This document shows, piece after piece, positions 1 to 12,893 of a stretch of 14,012 nt of DNA. Every line of letters begins with the position of its first letter. The first letter of the stretch is position 1. Origin of the DNA: an archaeon. Lineage in GTDB: Archaea > Iainarchaeota > Iainarchaeia > Iainarchaeales > Iainarchaeaceae. The DNA is taken from the NCBI GenBank assembly GCA_035289485.1, contig DATDXA010000064.1, positions 1 to 14,012 of the forward strand, written 5' to 3'. The notes under the pieces are model-generated. The model did no database searches and was not told the origin of the DNA. It saw only the letters and a program-made list of their open reading frames with translations. The position numbers and the translations under genes are program-made.

Positions 1-1617
1 GTTGTGCACTGCCCAAATCTTCTTTGAAAGCTCGTGGTCAAAGCCCATTTCCTGGAACATGGTGATTTTTTCCTTGTCCTTTGGCTTGACCTTGCCCTCA
101 AAGTGGCTCTTGATAAGTTTTTCCAAAACCTCCGGAGGAATTGGCTCTGCTTTCATCTTGAGCCTGTTGTGCTTGTTCGGGCTTTTTGCTTCGACCACCG
201 GAGACTTCTTGTTCATGGTCTCGTGATAAACCACAATCGGCGGAGAAACAGTAATCGCAACATTGTGATGCTTTTCTATTCTGTACTGGTTAATTTCAAG
301 GTGCAGCTCTCCCATTCCCGAAAGCAGGTGCTCCCCGGTTTCCTGATTAATTGTCGCGCGCAAATTTGGGTCCTCTTTAGTTAGCTGCCTTATAACTTCA
401 ATCAGTTTTGGCAAATCCTTTGTGCTCTTTGCCTCAATCGAAACAGTCATCACAGGCTCGACTTCAGTCATGAAACTTTCAAACGGCTTTATTTCCATAT
501 CCGAAATTGTTTCTCCCGCATAAACTTCTTTCAATCCAACAAGCGCAACAATGTTTCCTGCAGGCACTGTGGTTGCCTCAACAAAATCCTCTCCCATGAA
601 AAGGCCGATTTTTTGCGTGTAAACTTCTTTATGGCTTCCAACAAGCTTTACTTTTGTGCCCCTTGTGACTTTCCCAGAATATACCCTTCCGGTTGCAATG
701 TCTCCTGAGTGCTTGTCAACACTGACATCCGTAACCATCATTGTGAATGGGCCTGTTTCATCGCAATGCTGCATTGCCTTGCCCTCTGCACTTTCAATGT
801 CCCCTTTCCATACAACCGGCATCCTGTAGCCCTGCGCCTGAATTGGATTTGGAAGGTGCTGGATAATTAATTCAAAAATTGCTTCAGAGAGCTTGCTTTT
901 TGCAGAGAGTTCTTTTTGATTGTCGCTTTTGAGGTACTCATAAACCTGCTTGAACGAAATTCCTGTTTGCGCCATGCGCGGAACTGAAATCGCCCACTTG
1001 TTGTATGCGCTTCCAAACATTACCGAGCCGTCCTGCACCTTGACCTGCCATTTTTCCTCAAATTCTTTCGGGACGTTTTTTCTTATAAGCGTGTTGACGT
1101 GCGTGATGACTTTCATGAACCTCTCCTGCATCTGCTGCTCTGTTAGCTGCAGCTCGTTAATCAGGCGGTCAACCTTGTTGATGAAAAGAACCGGCCTTAC
1201 GTATTCGCGCAGAGCCTGGCGAACAACAGTTTCAGTCTGAGGCATCACTCCCTCGACCGCATCAACAACTAGTATTACTCCGTCAACTGCTCTCATTGCC
1301 CTTATGACTTCCCCTCCAAAGTCAACGTGCCCCGGAGTATCAATGAGATTTACCAGATGGTCAGTTCCTTTGTAATTGTAGAGAAGTGAGATGTTTGCTG
1401 CGTTAATTGTTATTCCGCGCTCCTGCTCCTGGTCCTCATAATCCATTACCCTTTGCTGGCCTGCGAGTTCCTCACTCATAAGCCCAGAAGCCGCAATGAG
1501 AGAATCGGCAAGAGTGGATTTTCCGTGATCGATATGGGCAACTATTCCCATGTTTCTGATGTTTAGCCTTGTATTCATCAGTTTTTCTGCAAGCTTTACA
1601 ACATCTTCCTTCTTCAT
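1..1617 (-). CDS. fusA: Elongation factor EF-2, N-terminal 539 codons (runs off the left edge; absent from the ORF track)
   Basis: Manual translation from ATG at 1617 gives MKKEDVVKLAEKLMNTRLNIRNMGIVAHIDHGKSTLADS, with RGITI, DTPGHVDF, NKVD and GMGELHLE motifs. GAGGTG lies 7 nt upstream of the ATG, and the gene follows rps7. Confidence 0.98.
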   Translation of the reverse strand, partial: MKKEDVVKLAEKLMNTRLNIRNMGIVAHIDHGKSTLADSLIAASGLMSEELAGQQRVMDYEDQEQERGITINAANISLLYNYKGTDHLVNLIDTPGHVDFGGEVIRAMRAVDGVILVVDAVEGVMPQTETVVRQALREYVRPVLFINKVDRLINELQLTEQQMQERFMKVITHVNTLIRKNVPKEFEEKWQVKVQDGSVMFGSAYNKWAISVPRMAQTGISFKQVYEYLKSDNQKELSAKSKLSEAIFELIIQHLPNPIQAQGYRMPVVWKGDIESAEGKAMQHCDETGPFTMMVTDVSVDKHSGDIATGRVYSGKVTRGTKVKLVGSHKEVYTQKIGLFMGEDFVEATTVPAGNIVALVGLKEVYAGETISDMEIKPFESFMTEVEPVMTVSIEAKSTKDLPKLIEVIRQLTKEDPNLRATINQETGEHLLSGMGELHLEINQYRIEKHHNVAITVSPPIVVYHETMNKKSPVVEAKSPNKHNRLKMKAEPIPPEVLEKLIKSHFEGKVKPKDKEKITMFQEMGFDHELSKKIWAVHN

Positions 1618-1742
1618 CCCGAGACACCTCTCGGGAGGAGGTGCCCTATCTCCTTGCGAACCTCTTGGTTCGCGAGGCCTCCCAGAACTTTGTTCTGGAA
1701 GGTCGCTTGGGCTCGATAGGCCTTACTCACTTCGTTCACCAT
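1618..1742 (-). repeat. Structured intergenic element, copy A (upstream of EF-2; carries a 51-nt two-hairpin insertion)
   Basis: mRNA strand GGCCTATCGAGC...AGATAGGGCACCTCCTCCCGAGAGGTGTCTCGGG-ATG; shares the CCTATC/GATAGG stem and 3' hairpin architecture with copies B-D. Confidence 0.85.
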
Positions 1743-2443: not shown

Positions 2444-2881
2444 TTACCTCTTCACTTTCTCCTTCTTTCCGGTCCTTAGCATCTGCAGTGCAATTCCATT
2501 TACATGCGTTACGCGGTATTTTACTCCCCAAAGGTCCCCTTTAGGCCCTCCTTGCGCTCCGCCTATTCCTTCAACCATAACCTCATCATGCTCATCAATG
2601 AACTTAATCGCCCCGTCCTTTGGCGCGAGCGCGGTCAGTTGCCTGCCGTTCTTTATGAGCTGCACTCTCACGCACTTTCGGATTCCCGAGTGCGGCTGCT
2701 TTGCTGTAACTCCCCTTTTTTCAAGCACAATTCCTTTTGCCTGGGGCGAGCCGTTCATCAGGTCTCCGCCCTTATCGTGCATTCGCGCGTTCATTTTCTT
2801 TTTCCAGCGCCTGTCCTTTTTTCGCCACTTCTTCCTTCTCTTTTCAAGTGCCCTTGCTGCAAATTCCCCTGCCATAAACAT
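2444..2881 (-). CDS. rps12: 30S ribosomal protein uS12
   Basis: [21 protein letters not shown] and FIDEHDEV motifs of archaeal uS12; start is ATG at 2881 or 2875. Confidence 0.97.
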
Positions 2882-2886
2882 CAAAC

Positions 2887-2967
2887 TCCGATCTGCTCAT
2901 CGGAAGGGAGCACCCAATCTTCGGCCTTTTGGCCTCGATTGGCTTTGCCCACTCCGTTCGCATAAAA
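2887..2967 (-). repeat. Structured intergenic element, copy B (upstream of rps12)
   Basis: mRNA strand GCCAATCGAGGCCAAAAGGCCGAAGATTGGGTGCTCCCTTCCGATGAGCAGATCGGA; same architecture as copies C/D with compensatory changes. Confidence 0.85.
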
Positions 2968-2975
2968 CTCCATTT

Positions 2976-3710: not shown

Positions 3711-3848
3711 TTTTTATCCAATCCTGTAAAATATCCGAAATTCCGCGAAAAGCCAAAAGGTCAAATAAGAACCAGAACTAAATCCGGCCCTACTCCGCCA
3801 AAATGGCTTCTCAAGGCGTAATTTAACAAGGAATATTGCTGATGAAGG

Positions 3849-3862
3849 TTTATAATGGTTTG
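3849..3862 (-). promoter_or_regulatory. Candidate TATA box (CAAACCATTATAAA on the minus strand) for an rpl30e-nusA-rps12-rps7-EF-2 transcript
   Basis: TTATAAA about 140 nt upstream of the rpl30e start. The motif also reads as a TATA box on the plus strand, so its direction is uncertain. Confidence 0.4.
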
Positions 3863-3876
3863 TTGAATGCCTTTGG

Positions 3877-4704
3877 CTAATCTACCAGCGTTTCTAAAGT
3901 GAACCGTAAATCATAATTTCTGTTGGATTCATCAAAAGGCACTAAAACTTTAACAAGTCCCGTATCAGTATGCTGGCCTTTTGAAGCGTCCAATACTGGG
4001 CTGTCTACCCCATTTACGGAAGGCGTGACAACAATATCACAATAAATTGTTTGCATTGGTTTTAATCCCCGAGAGCCGCAGCCGGGGTTGGTATTATATT
4101 GTGGATAATATGGAGGGTAATCTTTGGAAAAAAAACTTCCAGTGCCGGGAACGCCTATTATGATTGGGACTGTAAAATCTCCAATATTCTTAACTGCAAT
4201 TCTTTTTTCTTCGGATTTTTTTTGATTATTTAATTCGAACGTCAATTCATTAGGTGTCAATTCTATACCAATGTCCCTTTCTGGCAACAAATTAACTTTA
4301 CACACGGCTCCCTTATCGCCCTTTTTAAAATTTTGGTCTAGAAAGCCGCACACTTCTATTGTCTTCCCTTCATAGATTGTTTTCAATGTGACTTCTTTTG
4401 AAAGTTCATACGGGCCAGCCTTTCTTTGTTCAGGTGGGCCATAATTGACCTGGTCAATTACAGTACCTGCAGAATTGTCATAAACTTTGTAATAAATGTC
4501 ATTTCTATTCGAGATTATCTTTATCGTAACCCACGAATAATAGGCACCGCTGAATTCGTTGGTGGAAATCTCTAGACTATTGTCAAATTTCTCGGTAGCC
4601 CAACTGGCATCAAATGAAAAATCCGAATCATCTACCGAATTGTTTACATTGCAGCCCACAAGGAACACCGATGCCAGCGCAATCACGGCAAGAAATTTCT
4701 TCAT
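3877..4704 (-). CDS. Predicted lipoprotein / surface protein with a probable C-terminal Ig-like domain
   Basis: 275-aa ORF with signal peptide MKKFLAVIALASVFLVGC ending in a lipobox Cys. C-terminal IAVKNIGD...LKPMQTIYCDIVVTP resembles Ig-like beta-sandwich patterns (inference). Confidence 0.8.
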   Translation of the reverse strand: MKKFLAVIALASVFLVGCNVNNSVDDSDFSFDASWATEKFDNSLEISTNEFSGAYYSWVTIKIISNRNDIYYKVYDNSAGTVIDQVNYGPPEQRKAGPYELSKEVTLKTIYEGKTIEVCGFLDQNFKKGDKGAVCKVNLLPERDIGIELTPNELTFELNNQKKSEEKRIAVKNIGDFTVPIIIGVPGTGSFFSKDYPPYYPQYNTNPGCGSRGLKPMQTIYCDIVVTPSVNGVDSPVLDASKGQHTDTGLVKVLVPFDESNRNYDLRFTLETLVD

Positions 4705-4794
4705 CAGAAATTAATTGTCGGGGGGGGTATAATAATATGCCGAATCTTGTTATGTTGAAGTTCTTGAGCTCTTTAATTCCCTTCCCCAAACACG

Positions 4795-4823
4795 TTTTTA
4801 TAGTATTACTATGGTAATACTAT
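4795..4823 (+). promoter_or_regulatory. TA promoter TATA box (TTTTTATA) overlapping a perfect 10-bp inverted repeat, probable operator
   Basis: ATAGTATTAC-TATG-GTAATACTAT at 4800-4823, followed by GGAGGT and the ATG at 4837. Confidence 0.75.
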
Positions 4824-4836
4824 TGGAGGTATTTTT

Positions 4837-5022
4837 ATGGATGTGATTCCGGCAAAGTTCACGCCAAAGCTCACGGTCGAGATTGATGCGCTCGTGAAGG
4901 AAGGCTGGTATGCCAACCGCAGCGAGGCTATTCGCGATGCCGTACGCGACCTTGTAAAGAAGATGAAAGCCGAGCGCCTTGAGGCGGCAATTAAGGAGGA
5001 CGTTGAATGGGGCCTAAAATAA
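4837..5022 (+). CDS. Ribbon-helix-helix (CopG/Arc/MetJ) protein, putative antitoxin
   Basis: IDALVKEGWYANRSEAIRDAVRDL matches the RHH pattern; strong SD (GGAGGT); overlaps the downstream PIN gene. Confidence 0.88.
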   Translation: MDVIPAKFTPKLTVEIDALVKEGWYANRSEAIRDAVRDLVKKMKAERLEAAIKEDVEWGLK

Positions 5023-5480
5023 TCGCTGTCATTGACGCTGGCCCTCTTATTCATCTTGCCGAAATAGGGGCACTGAAGGCGCTTGAGGCATTTTCGCTAA
5101 TTACTCCAGGCGGGGTTGTCGAGGAAGTGAGGTCGTTTCCCGGAGGGATTAAGGTAGTTGACAATTATGACAAGAATCTTGTAAGCGCACTCCAGAATGA
5201 ATTCTCACTCGGGCTTGGCGAGAGCCAATGCATTGCGCTTGCAAAGGCGGAAAAAATCGTGATTTTCCTAACTGATGATCTTGATGCGAGAACAACCGCC
5301 CTGAGTCTTGGGCTTGAGCCGCACGGGACAATTGGGATACTGCTGAAGGCATTCAAGCTCGGCTTGCTGGGCAAAAAGGATGCAATCGAATTTGTGAAGA
5401 GGCTCAAATCTTCCTCTTCGCTTTATATAACCTCAGAACTTGTTGGGTATATTCTGCAAAAAATAGAAACGGAAAAATAG
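5007..5480 (+). CDS. PIN-domain (VapC-like, DUF3368-type) putative ribonuclease toxin
   Basis: AVIDAGPLIHL, LGLGESQCIALA, FLTDDLDAR and GTIGILL motifs with the acidic PIN residues; GGAGG SD inside the antitoxin gene; 16-nt overlap. Confidence 0.88.
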   Translation: MGPKIIAVIDAGPLIHLAEIGALKALEAFSLITPGGVVEEVRSFPGGIKVVDNYDKNLVSALQNEFSLGLGESQCIALAKAEKIVIFLTDDLDARTTALSLGLEPHGTIGILLKAFKLGLLGKKDAIEFVKRLKSSSSLYITSELVGYILQKIETEK

Positions 5481-5517
5481 TGCATTTCTGAGTGCCCAGA
5501 AAATGATTTGCAATCAG

Positions 5518-6747
5518 CTACTTCTTCATCACAAGGCTAACGCGCCCGGTCCCAACCTTTATCGGCTGGCCGACAATTATGTTCTCAACAACCCCTTCAA
5601 GGTTCTCGATTTCACCGCTAAAGCTTGCCTCAAGAAGGTGCTTAACTGTTTCTTCAAAAGATGCCCTTGCGAAAGGAGATGATTTGCCCCTTGTAATTCC
5701 GGTTCTTACAATTCCTCTGATTTCCCCGTCAAATGTCATAAGGTCAGCGAGAAGCATTATGTGGCGGATATCAATTGAAATCCCGTTCTCCTTGAGAACC
5801 CCGTCAAGTTCGTTTACAATTGCCATTCTTCCAGCTTCAATTCCCATTACCGCGCTGATTTCTTTTATGTCATTTGTAGTGGTGCGGCCGCCATCAACTT
5901 CAGGAAGCTTTACAACCGCCTTGAGGTTGGTTCCCCTTGTCTTTATGACGCTCTCTCCGTCTTCTTTTGAAAGTATGACCTTCTCTATTCCGCGCACACC
6001 CTGTATCCTTACATTGCGCAGCTTGTTTAGCGTCCTTCTGATTTTCAGGAGCGGCTCGTTTTTGAAAGTGAAATCAATAATGTTCTTTTCCCTGCGCTTT
6101 GCATCCTTTTTGAGATGCTTCTCTATTTTTGAAATCAAATCCTCGGTGTTGACATTTCTTGAGCTGATTGCATCGCGGTCAAGTTCGATTGTGACCTTGC
6201 TCTTTAGCAAATCCTCAGTGACCTTAATCACATCATCAATTCTGACATCAATTAGTGTCTTTGCGTACGCATCAAGTTTTTCCGCGTCCTTTTTGAGAAG
6301 CGGATCCGCGATGTAAATTGTCATTGTCGGGTATTTTGCCTTGCTTCTTCCATCAACGATTTCCTCAACCCTCTGAATTCCTGAACCTACCGAGACTTCT
6401 GCTGAACCCGCGTAGTGCTTTGTTCTAAGTGTTAGTTGCGTTCCGGGCTCTCCGAGAGATTGCGCCGTGATAATTCCCACAGCCTCGCCGGGTTCCACCT
6501 TGAGCGTTTCAAAGTGCGCGGTAATTCTTTCAAGCAGCTGCTCTCTATCCTTTGTTTTGAGCTTTAGCTCATCTGCAACCACATTGAATTCATCGGCAAC
6601 TTTTTTAGGCAGGCCTTCCTCATTAAACATCTCGCCGCTCGCATAAACCCTTTCAAAAACAGGTTCAACTTCAACGGGCTTTTTAGGGGCCTTCGGCTTC
6701 TTTGGCGCCTTAGGTTTTTTTTCCTTGTGCTCTTTTTTTGCTGCCAT
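5518..6747 (-). CDS. rpoA2: DNA-directed RNA polymerase subunit A'' (Rpo1C)
   Basis: [39 protein letters not shown] and [14 protein letters not shown] motifs. Confidence 0.98.
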
Positions 6748-6791: not shown

Positions 6792-9404
6792 TCACTTGCT
6801 CTTCATCTTTTCGTATTCCCTCTTAACCGAAATGCTCTTTCCCTTGAAGGACTTTTCAGGGAACACTCCGTCCTCTCCGTACCTGTATTGTATAATGTTC
6901 TTGTTTGCGGTCCTTACTGTTCCGTCATTAACAACAACCAAATCCTTTAGTGAATTCGCAAGCCTTCTGTACAAATATCCTGAGACCTTTGTTGAAACAC
7001 CTGTGTCGACTTCTCCTTGCCTTCCACCCATTGTGTGGTAGAAGTATTCCTTGCTCTCCATTCCTTCCATGAAGTTATGCGTTATGAATCCGCCGGCATC
7101 AATTCCGACATCGCTTCTCCTGTTGAGCCCGATAAGCCTGTTTCTAAATCCTCTTTTAGGCCTGCCTTCCCTAACGGATGCCTGTCCCCACATTCCTGAA
7201 AGGTTTGTAAGGTTGAGTACGGATCCTCTTGACCCTGAAAGTATCATGATGTTGCTGTTAAACTCTGGCTTTTCAACCATTACGCTTTCAACAATTTCCT
7301 TGAGGATGTGCTTTTGTATTTTCTCCTTCGCCCCGAATGCGGCTCTCATCATGTAAATCTCAAAGCTCTCGTTGTAAGTTCTTCCGGGGATTGTTTCAAT
7401 CTGGTTCTTGTGGAACTTCTTTACAACTTCTCCGGCATCATGCCTCATTTCCTCAACAACTTTTTCTCTTAGCTTTAGAACCTTCAGGCTTGGAGCGTAC
7501 TCTTCAAGGCTTACAGTCATTCCAACTTCTGCAATGAAGCTTGAAATAATCTTTGAGACCTTGTCGTAAAATTCAGTTAGCACCGCAGGAGGGTACTCTC
7601 TTGCAATGGCGTCAACGAGCTTTCCTTTTCCTTCACCAAGGCTCATCGAGTCAATGACCCCGCTCTTTAGCTGCCCCTTCTCGATTTTCACGATAAGGTC
7701 ATTCTCGTACGGGTCCTTGAGCGCAGGATGGTTAGGGTCAAGGCCCTTTACATGATTGTAAAATCTTGTCTTGTATTCCATGTTCAAATCCTTTGGAAGC
7801 AGCTGCGAGAAAATCAGCTTTCCGCTGTACTTGTCCTTGCCAACATCCGGCTTTGGAATATCCTCAAGCCCCATTATCTGGAAGTAGCGGAATGCCTGCT
7901 CTTTTGTGAGCACGGTTTGCTTAAGAGTTAGAATGAAGCAGCCTGAAACTCCGTCTTCGTCAAGAATAATTACCGGCGCTCCGTACCTTGGCGAGATGAA
8001 CTGCTTTTCAACTAGCATTAGTTCAGAAGCTTCCGCAATTCCTTCGGGGGTCTGCGGCACGTGCATGTTCATTTCATCGCCATCAAAGTCGGCGTTATAG
8101 GGCTTGCACACAATCGGATTGAGCCTGAAAGTTTTTCCCGGCATAATCTTTGCGTAGTGCGCCATCATTGAAAGCCTGTGAAGCGAAGGCTGCCTGTTGA
8201 AAAGTACTATGTCCCCGTTGCGCAGTTTTCTCTCGACCTTGTAGCCCGGCCCAAGTTCTTTAAGTATGTCTTCCTTGTTCACATCTCCAAGCTTTTTTCT
8301 CATCCCGTCTGCTCTGATAACATAAACGACTTTTCCGTCGTTGATTAGCTGCTTGCATGCCTCAATGTTGTTTGCCGTGACCATTTCAGGAACTGTCATG
8401 TTTTCTGCGATTTCTTGCGGCACTCCGAGCTGATTGATTGAAATCATCGGGTCCGGAGTGATAATTGATCTTGCAGCGAAGTTGACGCGCTTTCCTGTGA
8501 GGTTATACCTAAACCTTCCTTTCTTTCCCTGCAATCTCTGAACAAGCGTGCGAAGAGCCCTTCCGCTCCTGTGCTTTGCTGGCGGCACTCCTGCCGTGTT
8601 GTTGTTGAAATAAGTGGTCACGTGGTACTGGAGCAAATCCCAGAGGTCCTCAATGATTAGCTGCGGCGCTCCCGCATCGATGTTGTCCTTGAGCCTCATG
8701 TTTATTCTTATAATATCAACAAGCTTGTGCGTCAAATCATCTTCGCTCTTTATTCCTGATTCGAGCGTGATGCTTGGCCTTAAATTAATTGGCGGCACCT
8801 GCAGAACCGTCATTATGAACCACTCAGGCCTTAGTTTTCCCTTCTCATATCCAAAAAACTCGAGGTCCTGGTCTGGAATCTTCTCAACCCATTCCCTAAT
8901 CTGTGTTGGGTAAATCCTGTCTTTATCAATGTAAAAGTTGGTCGGCTTGTCAAGCGAGATTACTTTTCTCTCGTGCGCGCAGTGAGGGCATTTCTTTGCC
9001 TTTCTCGCCCTTGTGAGTATTTTCTTTGCAATATCAAGAGAATCATCGCCGATGTAAATCTTGAGCTGCTCAAGCTTGTCATCGGGCATTGCGATTCTTC
9101 CGCAGCCCTGGCATGTTGCCTGCATGAGAACTTCAAGCTTTTTTCCAAATTCACTGTGGCATACAGGCCTTACCATTTCAATATGCCCAAAGTGCCCCGG
9201 GCACTTCTTCATTGTGTTTCCGCATGTTTTGCAGCGAAGCCCCGGGTTGATTACTCCGAGGTGGTTATCCATTAAGCCGCCTTCCATTGGAAAGCCGTCC
9301 TTATCGTAAGTTTCCGGGCTCTTGGTTTCAATCGCAGACATCTTCCTGATTTGTTCTGGCGAGAGTATTCTGAATTCAACAGCCTTGATTCTTTTGAGCA
9401 TCAT
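6792..9404 (-). CDS. rpoA1: DNA-directed RNA polymerase subunit A' (Rpo1N)
   Basis: Catalytic NADFDGD, CPGHFGHIE, FNRQPSLH and GKRVNF motifs. Confidence 0.99.
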   Translation of the reverse strand: MMLKRIKAVEFRILSPEQIRKMSAIETKSPETYDKDGFPMEGGLMDNHLGVINPGLRCKTCGNTMKKCPGHFGHIEMVRPVCHSEFGKKLEVLMQATCQGCGRIAMPDDKLEQLKIYIGDDSLDIAKKILTRARKAKKCPHCAHERKVISLDKPTNFYIDKDRIYPTQIREWVEKIPDQDLEFFGYEKGKLRPEWFIMTVLQVPPINLRPSITLESGIKSEDDLTHKLVDIIRINMRLKDNIDAGAPQLIIEDLWDLLQYHVTTYFNNNTAGVPPAKHRSGRALRTLVQRLQGKKGRFRYNLTGKRVNFAARSIITPDPMISINQLGVPQEIAENMTVPEMVTANNIEACKQLINDGKVVYVIRADGMRKKLGDVNKEDILKELGPGYKVERKLRNGDIVLFNRQPSLHRLSMMAHYAKIMPGKTFRLNPIVCKPYNADFDGDEMNMHVPQTPEGIAEASELMLVEKQFISPRYGAPVIILDEDGVSGCFILTLKQTVLTKEQAFRYFQIMGLEDIPKPDVGKDKYSGKLIFSQLLPKDLNMEYKTRFYNHVKGLDPNHPALKDPYENDLIVKIEKGQLKSGVIDSMSLGEGKGKLVDAIAREYPPAVLTEFYDKVSKIISSFIAEVGMTVSLEEYAPSLKVLKLREKVVEEMRHDAGEVVKKFHKNQIETIPGRTYNESFEIYMMRAAFGAKEKIQKHILKEIVESVMVEKPEFNSNIMILSGSRGSVLNLTNLSGMWGQASVREGRPKRGFRNRLIGLNRRSDVGIDAGGFITHNFMEGMESKEYFYHTMGGRQGEVDTGVSTKVSGYLYRRLANSLKDLVVVNDGTVRTANKNIIQYRYGEDGVFPEKSFKGKSISVKREYEKMKSK

Positions 9405-9485
9405 TTCAACCGCTGCTCCGGTTGGGAGAGCGCCCTATCTTCGGCTTGAGCCTCGATAGGCCTTGCTTCATGCCCGACATTTTCC
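9405..9485 (-). repeat. Structured intergenic element, copy C (upstream of rpoA')
   Basis: mRNA strand GGCCTATCGAGGCTCAAGCCGAAGATAGGGCGCTCTCCCAACCGGAGCAGCGGTTGAA-ATG; 60 of 65 positions match copy D by manual alignment. Confidence 0.92.
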
Positions 9486-9513
9486 GTAATTACACATTTT
9501 CCAATCATGTCAT

Positions 9514-11334
9514 TCACACCTTGTCCGTCAAAATCAATTTCGGGTAAACTCCGAGCGCCTTCAGCTCGTCAAGCAAAAGCTTGAACCCATAGCTCATCTC
9601 AACCGGGTAAATCTTTGAATCATTCACTTCAAGCACGCGCTTTGTCTTTCTTATCTGGTCCTCAAACCCTATCACTCCTGCGGTTTCTGAAACCCACATA
9701 GTGACCTTGTCTGAATCATCAATGAATTTTTCCTGCAAGAGCATTGCCGCTCCGTGCCCTACAAGTGTTTCTCCTTCCATCTCTCCAAACCTCAGGCCGC
9801 CTTCTTTCTCTTTTCCTTCGGTTGGCTGCCTTGTCAGTATCTGCACAGGTCCGCGTGCCCTTGACTGTATCTTATGCGCTGTCATGTGGAAGAGCCTTCT
9901 ATAAGCTACAACTCCTGTAAAAATTTCTCCCTTAATTCTCTGCCCCGTGGTTCCGTCGTAGAAAACTTCCTTGCCATTTGGCTTAAAGCCCGCCTTGTGA
10001 AGCATTGCCTCGATATCTTCTTGCGGCGTTCCGGTGAACGGGGTTCCGTCAATTTGCTCGGCCTTTAGCGAAGCCGCCTTTCCGCCAAGCATCTCAAGCA
10101 AATGCCCAATTGTCATTCTGGAAGGGACCGAGTGCGGGTTCAGTATCAAATCCGGCTTAATTCCATCCGGCGTAAATGGCATGTCCTCTTCAGGAACAAT
10201 CAAGCCAACAACCCCTTTCTGCCCGTGCTTTGAGCTGAACTTGTCCCCGAGCGAAGGAATTCTTTCGCTTCTGATTTTTATTTTCACAAGCTTGTTTCCC
10301 GCGTCGGATTCTGTAACATAAATCTTGTCAACGTGCCCTTCCTTGCCTTTTCTGATTGTAACCGAAGCTTCCCTTCTCTTCTCCTGCACAACACCGAATT
10401 CATTTATCTCCTCAAGGAATCTTGGAGGCGATGTCTTTCCAATCACAACATCATTTTCTCCGATATAGGATTCAAGCTGTATTATTCCATCTTCGCCGAG
10501 TTTTTTGTAAGCTTCAGCGCCCAAAAATCCAACCGTGTCCTCTGGAGGGATTTCGAACTTGTCAATCTGCCCGCCCGGATACCTGTTCTCGGAGCTTTCA
10601 TATACTCTAAAGTAGCTGCTCCTTCCAAGCCCGCGGTCAACCGCGCCCTTGTTCAATACAACAGCATCAAGGATGTTGAATCCGTAAGGCATTATTGCAA
10701 CAACAAAGTTCTGCACCTGCGGCCTCTCATTGAGGCCGATTATGTCCTCGATCTTGGTTTTTACAAGCGCCTTCTGCGGATAATACAAAAGGAAGCTTTC
10801 CGTGTCAGTTCTGAAATTGTAATTGCTTGCGGCAAACCCTTGCGCCTGCTTAAACATCTTGGCCCCGTGCAGCGCCTTTCCTGCCATGTTGTGCTCGAGG
10901 TAGGGAATCATTGCGCTGATTATGCTAAGAATTGCCGCGCCGTCAATTTCAAGGTGCGTGTGCTCTTTTGTGAGCTCGTCAATTTTTGCCGCAATGAAAG
11001 CGTTCTCTTCCTCTTCGGCATCAAGGTATTCAATGTATCCCTGCTCTACAAGATCATTCCAAGTAAGTTTTCCTTCGCGCAGCTGCTTTAGCTGCTCATC
11101 GCCAAGTTTTATTTTGCCGCCATCAACAACAACAAGCGGGCGCTGCACCCTTCCTGCGTCCGTGTTTATGTAAACTTCATTCGTGTCCTCGTGGTATGCG
11201 ACATTTATCTGCTCAGACATCTTGTTCTCGCGCCTGCGGCCTATGATTTCGCGCGTGAGCTTAATTGGGTCATTGTGAAACCCAATCAGCCTTCCGTTAA
11301 TGTAAATTTTTGCATTTTTTGCGCTTTCAGCCAT
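9514..11334 (-). CDS. rpoB1: DNA-directed RNA polymerase subunit B' (Rpo2C)
   Basis: GDKFSSKHGQKG, PDLILNPH, TRQPTEG and GGLRFGEME motifs. Confidence 0.98.
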   Translation of the reverse strand: MAESAKNAKIYINGRLIGFHNDPIKLTREIIGRRRENKMSEQINVAYHEDTNEVYINTDAGRVQRPLVVVDGGKIKLGDEQLKQLREGKLTWNDLVEQGYIEYLDAEEEENAFIAAKIDELTKEHTHLEIDGAAILSIISAMIPYLEHNMAGKALHGAKMFKQAQGFAASNYNFRTDTESFLLYYPQKALVKTKIEDIIGLNERPQVQNFVVAIMPYGFNILDAVVLNKGAVDRGLGRSSYFRVYESSENRYPGGQIDKFEIPPEDTVGFLGAEAYKKLGEDGIIQLESYIGENDVVIGKTSPPRFLEEINEFGVVQEKRREASVTIRKGKEGHVDKIYVTESDAGNKLVKIKIRSERIPSLGDKFSSKHGQKGVVGLIVPEEDMPFTPDGIKPDLILNPHSVPSRMTIGHLLEMLGGKAASLKAEQIDGTPFTGTPQEDIEAMLHKAGFKPNGKEVFYDGTTGQRIKGEIFTGVVAYRRLFHMTAHKIQSRARGPVQILTRQPTEGKEKEGGLRFGEMEGETLVGHGAAMLLQEKFIDDSDKVTMWVSETAGVIGFEDQIRKTKRVLEVNDSKIYPVEMSYGFKLLLDELKALGVYPKLILTDKV

Positions 11335-11412
11335 TCAACCGCTGCTCCGGTTGGGGGAGCGCCCTATCTTCGCCTTGGGGCTCGATAGGCCGTGCTTCGC
11401 ACCAACATTTCC
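11335..11412 (-). repeat. Structured intergenic element, copy D (between rpoB'' and rpoB')
   Basis: mRNA strand GGCCTATCGAGCCCCAAGGCGAAGATAGGGCGCTCCCCCAACCGGAGCAGCGGTTGA-ATG; near-identical to copy C. Confidence 0.92.
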
Positions 11413-11426
11413 AAATGCATTAAGTG

Positions 11427-12893
11427 TCATTTCAATTTCACTCCCATGTCCTTGAGAAGCTTCTCAACCGGCTCCTCTTCCGCTTCCGTTGTGACCTGCG
11501 CGAGCATTGCAAGATTCTTTACAAGCCCACACTGCGGCCCATCAGGCGTTTCGATTGCGCAGAGCCTTCCCCAGTGCGTTCCGTGAACATCACGGGCCTC
11601 ATAAAGTTCCCTGTTCTTGTCAAGCGGCGATTTTACTTTTCTCAAATCGGTCAGAGGCGAGAGGAAATTTACGCGATCCATGAACTTTGAAACTCCTGTG
11701 GCTCTTCCTATCCAATTTCCCGTGCTCATTGCAAACCTTATGCGTTCCGAAACCGCTCCTGGCCTTACAATCGTTGAAATGTTGAGCTTCCTTCTCCTTG
11801 TAACGGTCCTGTCAATCTGGAATTTGAGGTCCTTGATGAAATATTTGAAGCTGTATCTGAAAAGGTGCTCCATTAGTTTTCCTGAAAGCTCAAGCCTCTT
11901 GTTAGAGTAATGGTCCTTATCGTCCTGCTCCCTTAAATTGTACGCCCTTTCAACGGCTTTGGTTGCCATCATCACAAGGTAGTAAGCCTTTGCAAGCCTG
12001 TTTTTAGAATCCTGGCCGATGTGCGGCAAGAGGAACGCATCTATAACTTCTTGCGCCCTTCTGAGCCTGTACTCTTCAACCTGCCCGGGCGCTACAAACT
12101 TTCCAATCTTATCAAGAGCTTCCTTCTCGCTTTTTACAAGCAGGTTTTCGTTATTAATCATGACATCGTTTTGGATTTCTTTCTGGTCAATGAATGCATC
12201 CGTGATTGCCTGCGGGGTTTTGAGCCCGAGAGCTTTTAGAAGAACAAAAAGTTTTAGTTTTCGCGGCGAAGCCGGGAATGTAACTCCAAGAGTTCCATCA
12301 GGGCTTCTTATGATTCTTACCCTTCCCTTGAAGGCCCCTCTTGTGCTGATAACTTCAGCGACGATTTTATCGGACTGCTCGGAAACAATTACCCTGTCTG
12401 AAGCAAGAACTTCCTGGGTCATGAGCGCCTTTTCCGAGCCGTTGATTATGAAGTAGCCGCCAAAATCCATCGAGTCCTCTCCCATTTCAACAAGTTCCTC
12501 GCCGGTCTTTCCATTGAGCCAGCAAAGGTTTGATTTGAGCATCACCGGAAGCTCTCCGATGTAAGTTTCCTTCTTGTCCTGCTCAACATCCCTTCTAAGC
12601 AGCCTCATTGTGAGATGTATCGGGCTTGAATATGTCCTGTTGCGCAGGCGCGCTTCCATCGGCAAAAATCTCTGCCGCGGGGAGCCATCGGCTTCAACAA
12701 TCTGCGGCTTGCGCACGGATATTTTTTCAAATTCAACGCGCACTTCCTCAATTTTCGGAGTGACCTCGTTGTTTTCAACAATGATTTCTGGCAGCTTCTT
12801 TTCCACGAACTGGTTGAAGGAATCAATCTCCATTTTGGCGATGCTCCTGTCCCTGAAGTAGGAATTGATAACAGACCAGCCATCAAATGTCAT
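11427..12893 (-). CDS. rpoB2: DNA-directed RNA polymerase subunit B'' (Rpo2N)
   Basis: EARLRNRTYS, GGYFIINGSEK, DDKDHYSNKRL and ETPDGPQCGLVKNLA motifs; ATGA overlap with the rpoH stop. Confidence 0.98.
   Translation of the reverse strand: MTFDGWSVINSYFRDRSIAKMEIDSFNQFVEKKLPEIIVENNEVTPKIEEVRVEFEKISVRKPQIVEADGSPRQRFLPMEARLRNRTYSSPIHLTMRLLRRDVEQDKKETYIGELPVMLKSNLCWLNGKTGEELVEMGEDSMDFGGYFIINGSEKALMTQEVLASDRVIVSEQSDKIVAEVISTRGAFKGRVRIIRSPDGTLGVTFPASPRKLKLFVLLKALGLKTPQAITDAFIDQKEIQNDVMINNENLLVKSEKEALDKIGKFVAPGQVEEYRLRRAQEVIDAFLLPHIGQDSKNRLAKAYYLVMMATKAVERAYNLREQDDKDHYSNKRLELSGKLMEHLFRYSFKYFIKDLKFQIDRTVTRRRKLNISTIVRPGAVSERIRFAMSTGNWIGRATGVSKFMDRVNFLSPLTDLRKVKSPLDKNRELYEARDVHGTHWGRLCAIETPDGPQCGLVKNLAMLAQVTTEAEEEPVEKLLKDMGVKLK

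Follow-up and report, generated by a model that had tools for sequence, protein, structure and literature searches.

The hairpin and overlapping pseudoknot that precede rpoA' in this stretch of archaeal DNA (the window, by which we mean all 14,012 nucleotides analysed) probably make up the 3' domain of a short non-coding repeat with an RNA-type structure, which moves, or has at some time moved, within one family of DPANN archaea (Iainarchaeota-like). Any gate on translation formed by this structure would be a local by-product at best, and the module is probably tolerated, and perhaps partly co-opted, in coupled operons via relay frames or a built-in SD. The initial annotation had described positions 9405-9432 as a pseudoknot or switch that covers the ribosome-binding region in four copies and gates initiation. 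We find that this segment is the 3' domain of one copy (copy C) and that the reported hairpin, with its loop-to-upstream pairing, makes up the last third of a module of 57-110 nt, which is multi-copy and restricted to this family.

The minus strand of the window carries the operon rpoH-rpoB''-rpoB'-rpoA'-rpoA''-L30e-NusA-S12-S7-EF2, as identified by Pfam on the long ORFs; archaeal transcription/translation operons classically have this arrangement, here with a split rpoB. Within it, rpoB'' spans 11427-12893, rpoB' 9514-11334 (stop codon at 9516-9514), rpoA' 6792-9404 (ATG at 9404), rpoA'' 5518-6747, S12 2444-2884 and EF-2 1-1617 (ATG at 1617), with rpoH, L30e, a NusA-like KH protein and S7 likewise recognized by Pfam on the same strand. 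The nearest named relatives in a comparison of RpoB' are Diapherotrites/Iainarchaeum metagenome bins, at 62-67% identity, and the host genome comprises 1.16 Mb in 64 contigs, at 90% completeness. As a separate observation, an insert of about 1.8 kb (3730-5517) lies between rpoA'' and L30e, genes that are usually adjacent. It contains a 275-aa ORF with a lipobox-like N-terminus on the minus strand (3877-4704), for which neither Pfam nor NCBIfam returned a match, and, on the plus strand, a 61-aa antitoxin-like ORF (4837-5022) overlapping a DUF3368 PIN-like ORF (5007-5480). The latter two probably constitute a toxin–antitoxin pair, and all three ORFs of the insert were without a match in NCBIfam.

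From 5' to 3', the module consists of a helix P1, a GA/GAA internal loop, a helix P2 with an NCAA loop, a linker, and a hairpin P3 with the pseudoknot. P1 follows the pattern CCNATC/GATN'GG, in which N and N' are compensated, and the GA/GAA internal loop above it is invariant, while P2 is a short, variable hairpin in whose place two extra hairpins stand in copy A. The module is about 59 nt long in copies B, C, and D and 108 nt in copy A, and single-sequence folds give back P1, P2, and P3 with z-scores of -2.3 to -5.7 (the last for copy A). The four window copies all lie on the minus strand, and each is defined by its fold and by a match to R1, a covariance model built from seven short copies. 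Copy C, for which covariation adds further evidence, occupies the rpoB'/rpoA' junction (9407..9465; 81.4 bits), with P1 at 9462-9455/9439-9432, P2 at 9452-9443, and P3 at 9424-9419/9412-9407; its linker GCTC (9431-9428) pairs with positions 9418-9415 of the loop GAGCAG (9418-9413). Copy D, at the rpoB''/rpoB' junction (11336..11394; 80.2 bits), has its linker GCTC at 11360-11357, P3 at 11353-11348/11341-11336, and the loop at 11347-11342, with the ATG of rpoB' at 11334. Compared with copy C, it shows a compensated G-C to C-G flip in P2, and an 18-mer of copy C recurs identically in it (11353-11336), a pair of matches seen in none of 200 shuffles. Copy B, at the NusA/S12 junction (2887..2947; 77.5 bits), has the linker TGCTC at 2912-2908, P3 at 2904-2899/2892-2887, and a compensated T-A to A-T change in P1. 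Copy A, the long form before EF-2 (1618..1725; 36.7 bits), is of an SD type considered below; its linker CACCTC lies at 1643-1638 (CACC at 1643-1640), P3 at 1635-1629/1624-1618, the loop GGTG at 1628-1625, and an SD-like GAGGTG at 1630-1625. By eye, the 5' flank of copy D reads GGTGCGAAG (11395..11403, minus strand), and the same flank, as TTGCGAAG or in the longer form GCGAACGAAGTGAG, is seen again upstream of many copies, tRNA-linked ones included; it probably belongs to the element.

The complementarity that had been reported between the hairpin loop and the segment just 5' of it is present on the minus strand in all four copies, and it is kept, not lost, in additional copies. We counted covariation in 43 distinct copies (16 from the own genome and 27 from relatives) aligned to R1, which itself lacks the pseudoknot, so that the four linker/loop pairs were added afterwards for counting. 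In the pseudoknot helix, 93% of cells are paired, and three of the four pairs show changes on both sides (for example, U-A 17, G-C 12, and C-G 9 at one pair, and C-G 20 and U-A 9 at another), with P3 paired in 98.8% and changing at six of six pairs, P1 in 95.3%, and P2 in 100%. For the whole structure, 96.5% of cells are paired versus 71.8% with shuffled partners, the observed value being reached in 0 of 500 shuffles, and sliding the partners by 1-3 columns leaves 34-46% paired. Linker/loop pair types include GCTC/GAGC, GCCC/GGGC, GCTT/AAGC, TGCG/CGCA, and CACC/GGTG, among which the joint change of both partners described for copy A (GCTC/GAGC to CACC/GGTG) takes its place. The module therefore contains the two crossing helices, each with compensatory changes, that characterize an H-type pseudoknot. 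An L1 of about 3 nt across the 6-bp P3 is a plausible span for such a fold, and L3, at 2 nt across the 4-bp pseudoknot helix, is tight by pseudoknot geometry, in line with the earlier caution over a very short linker; the two helices may coexist or alternate. When the 3' domain is folded alone, near-equal competing hairpins appear for copies A and C.

Other structural readings were set aside. An extra 5' helix between the GAAG flank and the linker is present in some minimum-energy folds, and is inconsistent by eye. A kink-turn at the GA/GAA loop was rejected as covariation fixes the Watson-Crick register of P1 up to the loop, the third P1 pair from the loop being A-U in 34 copies and G-C in 7, which leaves a 2x3 internal loop and not a K-turn. 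A bulge-helix-bulge intron was rejected by eye, since the two bulges face each other without the 4-bp stagger, and exact excision of the copy in S15 (see below) would break the frame. Rfam 15, with its known riboswitch and ribozyme families, gave no match in the window at E≤1, and on five other loci it returned only a tRNA at the gathering score.

A loose pattern found nine copies in the own genome and none in the reversed control, and R1 gave 36 matches there at E≤1 and 29 at E≤0.02. At E≤0.001, matches occur in 19 of the 41 genomes searched, own genome counted, with 17 of the 22 other genomes of the family positive and, weakly, one of 18 from other families of the order. Copy numbers differ widely between close relatives, being 17, 4, 3, 1, 22, and 2 in the same genus, with a swing from 1 to 26 within one genus. 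In nine of 60 further regions the contig ends before the full 200-nt flank (eight at 1-14 nt and one 85 nt past the module), and contig ends just beyond the module are expected of a repeat that breaks assemblies. Our literature search returned no description of such an element in DPANN archaea.

Evidence for movement comes from two orthologous junctions, which we compared by eye in 16 genomes. The rpoB''/rpoB' junction is compact (8-21 nt) in four, filled by a module in eight, and occupied by other long spacers in four; for rpoB'/rpoA', the corresponding numbers are six, seven, and three. Within one genus, species differ in the module variant found at the same junction. The module thus combines multiple copies with filled and empty orthologous sites, as looked for in a mobile repeat. 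DNA contigs from four sequencing runs, belonging to four studies, span copies C and D; among the junctions listed none skips them, and the contigs are uninformative on empty alleles. The runs listed for this DNA included no RNA run. Several filled sites are bracketed by a duplicated gene tail or gene start, with repeats of about 20 nt in G003 and G007 and about 13 nt in G016, and with the rpoB' tail repeated in G015 and G020. Flanking repeats, counted where a direct repeat matches at 12 or more bases and its second copy begins 0-3 nt beyond P3, were found at 19 of 111 copies and, with an offset control, at none of 111; they are 10-46 nt long. The second repeat begins right after the last base pair of P3, and the first ends 0-2 nt before the first position of R1 in at least 11 of the 19 repeat-flanked copies; this abutment on the start of the model indicates that the folded module is the inserted unit. 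In other repeat-flanked copies a variable stretch lies between, often ending in TTGCGAAG or GCGAACGAAGTGAG. Counting against a mobile element is that clear flanking repeats accompany only about one in six copies.

An enzyme that could have moved the module did not emerge from our searches. The own genome (90% complete) yielded no reverse transcriptase of the RVT_1 type (PF00078), and a TnpB-type match was weak and below the cut-off. A Y1_Tnp transposase is found in nine of the 23 family genomes, which are incomplete, and is an unlikely mobiliser, as its presence there does not follow module copy number: G001 and G012 have 17 copies each and no Y1 transposase, versus 12 copies and seven transposases in G009. 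Contig ends are where most of the seven in G009 are found, and where the own genome has a partial gene for a Y1 (IS200/IS605-type) transposase (G000:C40:8017-8184). In the rpoB'/rpoA' spacer of G005 (L071), the module orthologous to copy C has a second 3' domain (linker and P3) nested where its own linker and the 5' strand of its P3 would stand, so the pseudoknot hairpin of about 27 nt may move or convert alone.

The contexts of the module extend well beyond starts of translation. In a sample of 121 copies (30 from the own genome and 91 from relatives), 17, from several genera, have their end at -2 to +1 nt relative to where a tRNA on the same strand begins (five for Ile-TAT, four for Trp, three for Lys, two each for Ser and Glu, and one for Leu), one adjoins a tRNA on the opposite strand at its 3' end, 31 have an open frame beginning no more than 14 nt downstream, and 72 have other contexts. 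The downstream features include RNAP subunits, S12, EF-2, ndk, pyrD, MCM, ATPase A, and six tRNA species. Judged by eye from neighbouring ORFs and tRNAs, 32 of the 36 own copies are in sense orientation, two are antisense, and two are unclear. That several genera have tRNA-linked copies at the same five or six tRNA species, with the structure kept, would fit a host function too. RNase P RNA is present in the genome, so the tRNA-linked copies would be removed as leaders, and the idea that the module replaces RNase P can be ruled out.

Some copies lie inside genes. A degenerate one is found in frame in the N-terminal tail of S15 (G000:C31:79457-79503, minus strand, locus L249), where 16 module-encoded residues and four from the 5' flank are missing from all 13 further members of the family that were inspected (23 had a match), so that the own genome alone has the module among these 14. 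A second module lies 30 nt downstream of the S15 gene. In S17, the copy (G000:C22:7606-7685, plus strand) is in the N-terminal region, between two copies of the gene's first nine or so codons (AEKVH...), and as the second copy of the S17 start is without an ATG, this module must be translated. A conserved stretch of about 21 nt, GGCACCGGCACCGAACCCTGC, stands directly 3' of several modules of the own genome (G000 C38:1355-1380; C4:10250-10278, minus strand; C14; C5:26639-26665; C51). One of its frames reads APAPNPA, and it is possibly the duplicated tail of paralogous (pilin-like?) genes.

An SD is indeed held in the pseudoknot in one variant of the module, for which the earlier reading is correct. 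This SD-type subfamily, with a P3 loop of GGAGGT/GAGGTG and a CACCTC-like linker, accounts for seven of the 121 copies, and in all seven the start codon falls at -1/0 relative to the P3 end, so that it follows the SD-like motif by about 6-8 nt; the junction copies of G012 and G016 also look SD-type. Copy A belongs here, with the EF-2 SD GAGGTG in its P3 loop opposite CACCTC, just as had been noted, and the loop GAGCAG of copies B, C, and D contains no SD. The claim that the structure covers the ribosome-binding region in every copy is thus borne out as far as the start codon is concerned, which is 0-5 nt away from the P3 base in each window copy, but the SD itself is enclosed in copy A only. 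Similarly, a gate on initiation is conceivable for the copy A variant, but a gate dedicated to the four genes does not agree with the copies that precede tRNAs (17 of 121), follow gene tails, or lie within coding sequence, nor with related genomes that lack the module at the same junctions.

Each window copy is also crossed by a short open frame on the minus strand. The frame over copy C has 35 codons (9401..9508) and a TGA overlapping the ATG of rpoA' (ATGA); its own ATG comes 8 nt after the rpoB' stop, measured from that codon's first base (5 nt past its end), at the same distance from an SD-like AAGGTG in the rpoB' tail as the rpoA' start in some relatives with compact junctions. Over copy D, the ATG of a 31-codon frame (11335..11430) overlaps the TGA of rpoB'' (ATGA), and the ATG of rpoB' directly follows its TGA. 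The 30-codon frame over copy B (2881..2973) begins 5 nt after the NusA stop by the same measure (2 nt past the codon end) and ends in a TGA overlapping the S12 ATG (TGATG). The 42-codon frame over copy A (1614..1742) begins 47 nt after the S7 stop, again from the codon's first base, leaving a 44-nt gap, and its TGA overlaps the ATG of EF-2 (ATGA). Among relatives, bridging frames are present in five of five tested filled rpoB'/rpoA' spacers (G015 and G020 left out) and, within a strict window, in four of seven filled rpoB''/rpoB' spacers; in the other three, hand translation gives frames that traverse the module and terminate either where the duplicated tail has its stop or on the first of two ATGs. 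At nine junctions and in the four window copies, the bridging frame stops at -4 to +5 nt relative to the ATG of the next gene. This is the proximity called for by termination–reinitiation, which, according to published work, requires overlaps or very short distances (PMC10666635). The stop of rpoB'' is ATGA in seven of seven filled junctions and in G010, and TAA or TAG in three of three compact ones.

These frames nevertheless have a high chance expectation. Shuffling the nine junction spacers that have one, with their ends fixed, gives a bridging frame in 10-59% of trials per site, the GC-rich module is no less free of stop codons on its antisense than on its sense strand, and the related genomes in these counts are not independent, for which reasons we rate the bridging frames as suggestive. 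A conserved peptide was rejected, as the reading frame through the module differs between copies. Frames also occur at junctions without the module: an 11-codon frame crosses the 21-nt rpoB''/rpoB' spacer of G010 (L081), and the rpoB'/rpoA' spacers of G009 and G013 (L078/L080) hold a 25- and a 72-codon hydrophobic ORF. With all four window copies crossed, any gate would likely be opened by a translating ribosome and not by a ligand or Mg2+, and, read from the sequence, the bridging frames are suggestive of ribosome-driven coupling and not of a ligand switch.

We propose that each insertion in the window landed in an intercistronic junction at which translation of the downstream gene was coupled to the upstream gene. 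The surviving copies would be those crossed by a frame that begins at the upstream stop or close to it, or else at the old start codon, and stops on the new start. Ribosomes would melt the module while translating, terminate on the AUG, and re-initiate, and as the folded module would leave no free ribosome-binding site, the downstream gene would stay dependent on upstream translation. In the copy A variant, the P3 loop would supply the SD, paired to the anti-SD-like linker until opened. The proposal supposes that the modules are transcribed through and that the bridging frames are translated, as their arrangement in the sequence would imply.

A bolder form of the mobile-repeat reading, which we consider possible though rather improbable, is that the module represents a new kind of mobile element in prokaryotes, whose spread or selection takes place at the level of a folded RNA or single strand. 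It would be a unit of the tRNA-leader type, with its 3' end at the base of the pseudoknotted hairpin, where RNase P would cut the tRNA-linked copies. It would be copied into gene borders with long, variable duplications and without a recognisable reverse transcriptase or transposase, and the host would neutralise it by relay frames or co-opt it as a portable, self-masked ribosome-binding site.

The rival that survives best, although we hold it to be unlikely, is a cis-acting translational switch kept by the host, in which the pseudoknot and P3 hide the start until temperature, Mg2+, a protein, or a ligand opens them. The start codons 0-5 nt from P3 in the window copies are as such a switch would have them, and the pseudoknot persists even where an SD occupies the loop, with all seven SD-type copies placed at start codons and carrying a CACCTC-like linker. 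The near-equal alternative hairpins into which the 3' domain of copies A and C folds alone, and a 2-nt connecting loop whose geometry would favour alternating over co-existing helices, point in the same direction. However, the module also occurs upstream of tRNAs, after gene tails, and within ORFs, and close relatives have their essential rpoB' and rpoA' without it. The loop and linker vary freely with no conserved pocket, the associated genes have no common pathway, and Rfam gives no match; neither the conserved ligand core nor the coherent gene set of a generic riboswitch was found. The bridging frames, moreover, would provide an opener without any signal.

Less likely still is an element of RNA processing or stability, with a cleavage site at the 3' end of the module or a block to exonucleases, acting as operon punctuation. 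Its products would be tRNAs with mature 5' ends and mRNAs that are leaderless or protected, with RNase P, tRNase Z, or the module itself as the cutter. Placement fits, since the 3' end of P3 adjoins position +1 of the tRNA (offset -2 to +1) in 17 copies and many other copies lie 0-2 nt from start codons, and RNase P, whose RNA is present, would release tRNA-linked copies with exactly that 3' end. Pseudoknots can also mimic acceptor arms, as in the tRNA-like structures of plant viruses, and the 5S t-element of Haloferax is cut by tRNase Z. Yet bridging-frame stops that overlap the next start make sense only on uncut mRNA, the S15 and S17 copies must remain in their mRNAs, and no known ribozyme family matches. 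Adjacency to start codons is also explained by insertion if the target repeat begins at the start codon. Finally, a family of small trans-acting RNAs of 60 nt, protein-binding or catalytic and released from many precursors, mainly tRNA co-transcripts, would account for the GA/GAA internal loop and the P2 loop NCAA, both conserved though unpaired, for the structure kept in tRNA-linked copies of several genera, and for TATA-like stretches 20-45 nt upstream of these copies (a weak sign, being AT-richness only with inconsistent spacing), but is very improbable given that copy number swings from 1 to 26 within one genus, that many copies are embedded in mRNAs, and that the tRNA-Ile leaders of two congeneric species differ in every helix, which suggests replacement and not conservation.

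Taken as a mobile repeat, the module offers a caution for the annotation of DPANN genomes and for the mining of regulatory RNAs, as a covarying pseudoknot before essential genes resembles a new archaeal riboswitch and yet is best read as a dispersed repeat. The element is unusual in its RNA-type tertiary fold, strong sense bias, exact placement at tRNA 5' ends and start codons, and long, variable repeats, a combination that no known enzyme explains. The relay frames suggest how compact operons coupled by stop/start overlaps survive insertions, and the SD-type variant would be a natural, portable, self-masked ribosome-binding site.

Several known systems share part of these features. The REP/BIME, ERIC, Correia, and RUP/BOX repeats and MITEs are short, non-coding, multi-copy, hairpin-forming intergenic repeats, and like them the module would be co-transcribed with adjacent genes, is present or absent between relatives, and breaks assemblies (PMC10969869). 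Unlike a MITE, it is without terminal inverted repeats, its 5' end (YAAGGCC) not being complementary to the 3' strand of P3 on inspection of the alignment and P1 and P3 being separate internal hairpins, and its flanking repeats are long and variable (10-46 nt, at 19 of 111 copies) and not a fixed short duplication. It also differs from the bacterial repeats and MITEs in its strong sense preference and covarying RNA-type pseudoknot, and we found no parent IS or matching transposase; as regards the RAYT of REP/BIME, Y1_Tnp is present in nine of the 23 incomplete genomes, unrelated to copy number. Rickettsia palindromic elements resemble it in sparing genes by in-frame insertion, here in the N-terminal tails of S15 and S17, but are about 150 bp long and mostly intragenic, whereas the module is found mostly at gene borders and before tRNAs (PMC10969869). 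The ATGA/TGATG overlaps at both ends of the bridging frames are like those of termination–reinitiation coupling (PMC6728339; PMC10666635). What departs from known coupling is a non-conserved relay frame of 21-70 codons over a folded repeat, which would restore the coupling that insertion would break, and our literature search returned no description of such a frame.

Among regulatory RNAs, preQ1-I/II and SAM-II are SD-sequestering riboswitches with H-type pseudoknots and are represented in Rfam. The SD-type modules such as copy A are like them in having a compact pseudoknot that includes the SD just before the start, but the module differs in having no Rfam match, binding core, or coherent regulon, and in that most of its loops are without an SD. 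SINEs and retroposed small RNAs have a precise 3' end, a variable 5' extension, and target duplications of variable length. The module resembles SINEs in these end features and in having possible source copies in the transcripts of RNA genes (tRNA leaders), and differs in that no reverse transcriptase was found in the genome and there is no A-rich tail. A last comparison is with yeast mitochondria, which contain mobile GC clusters and 'byp' elements, the latter being inserts over which ribosomes hop. These too are small, GC-rich, folded inserts in and between the essential genes of a reduced genome that are made harmless at translation, except that at the module ribosomes would appear to read through the insert in a relay frame instead of hopping over it.
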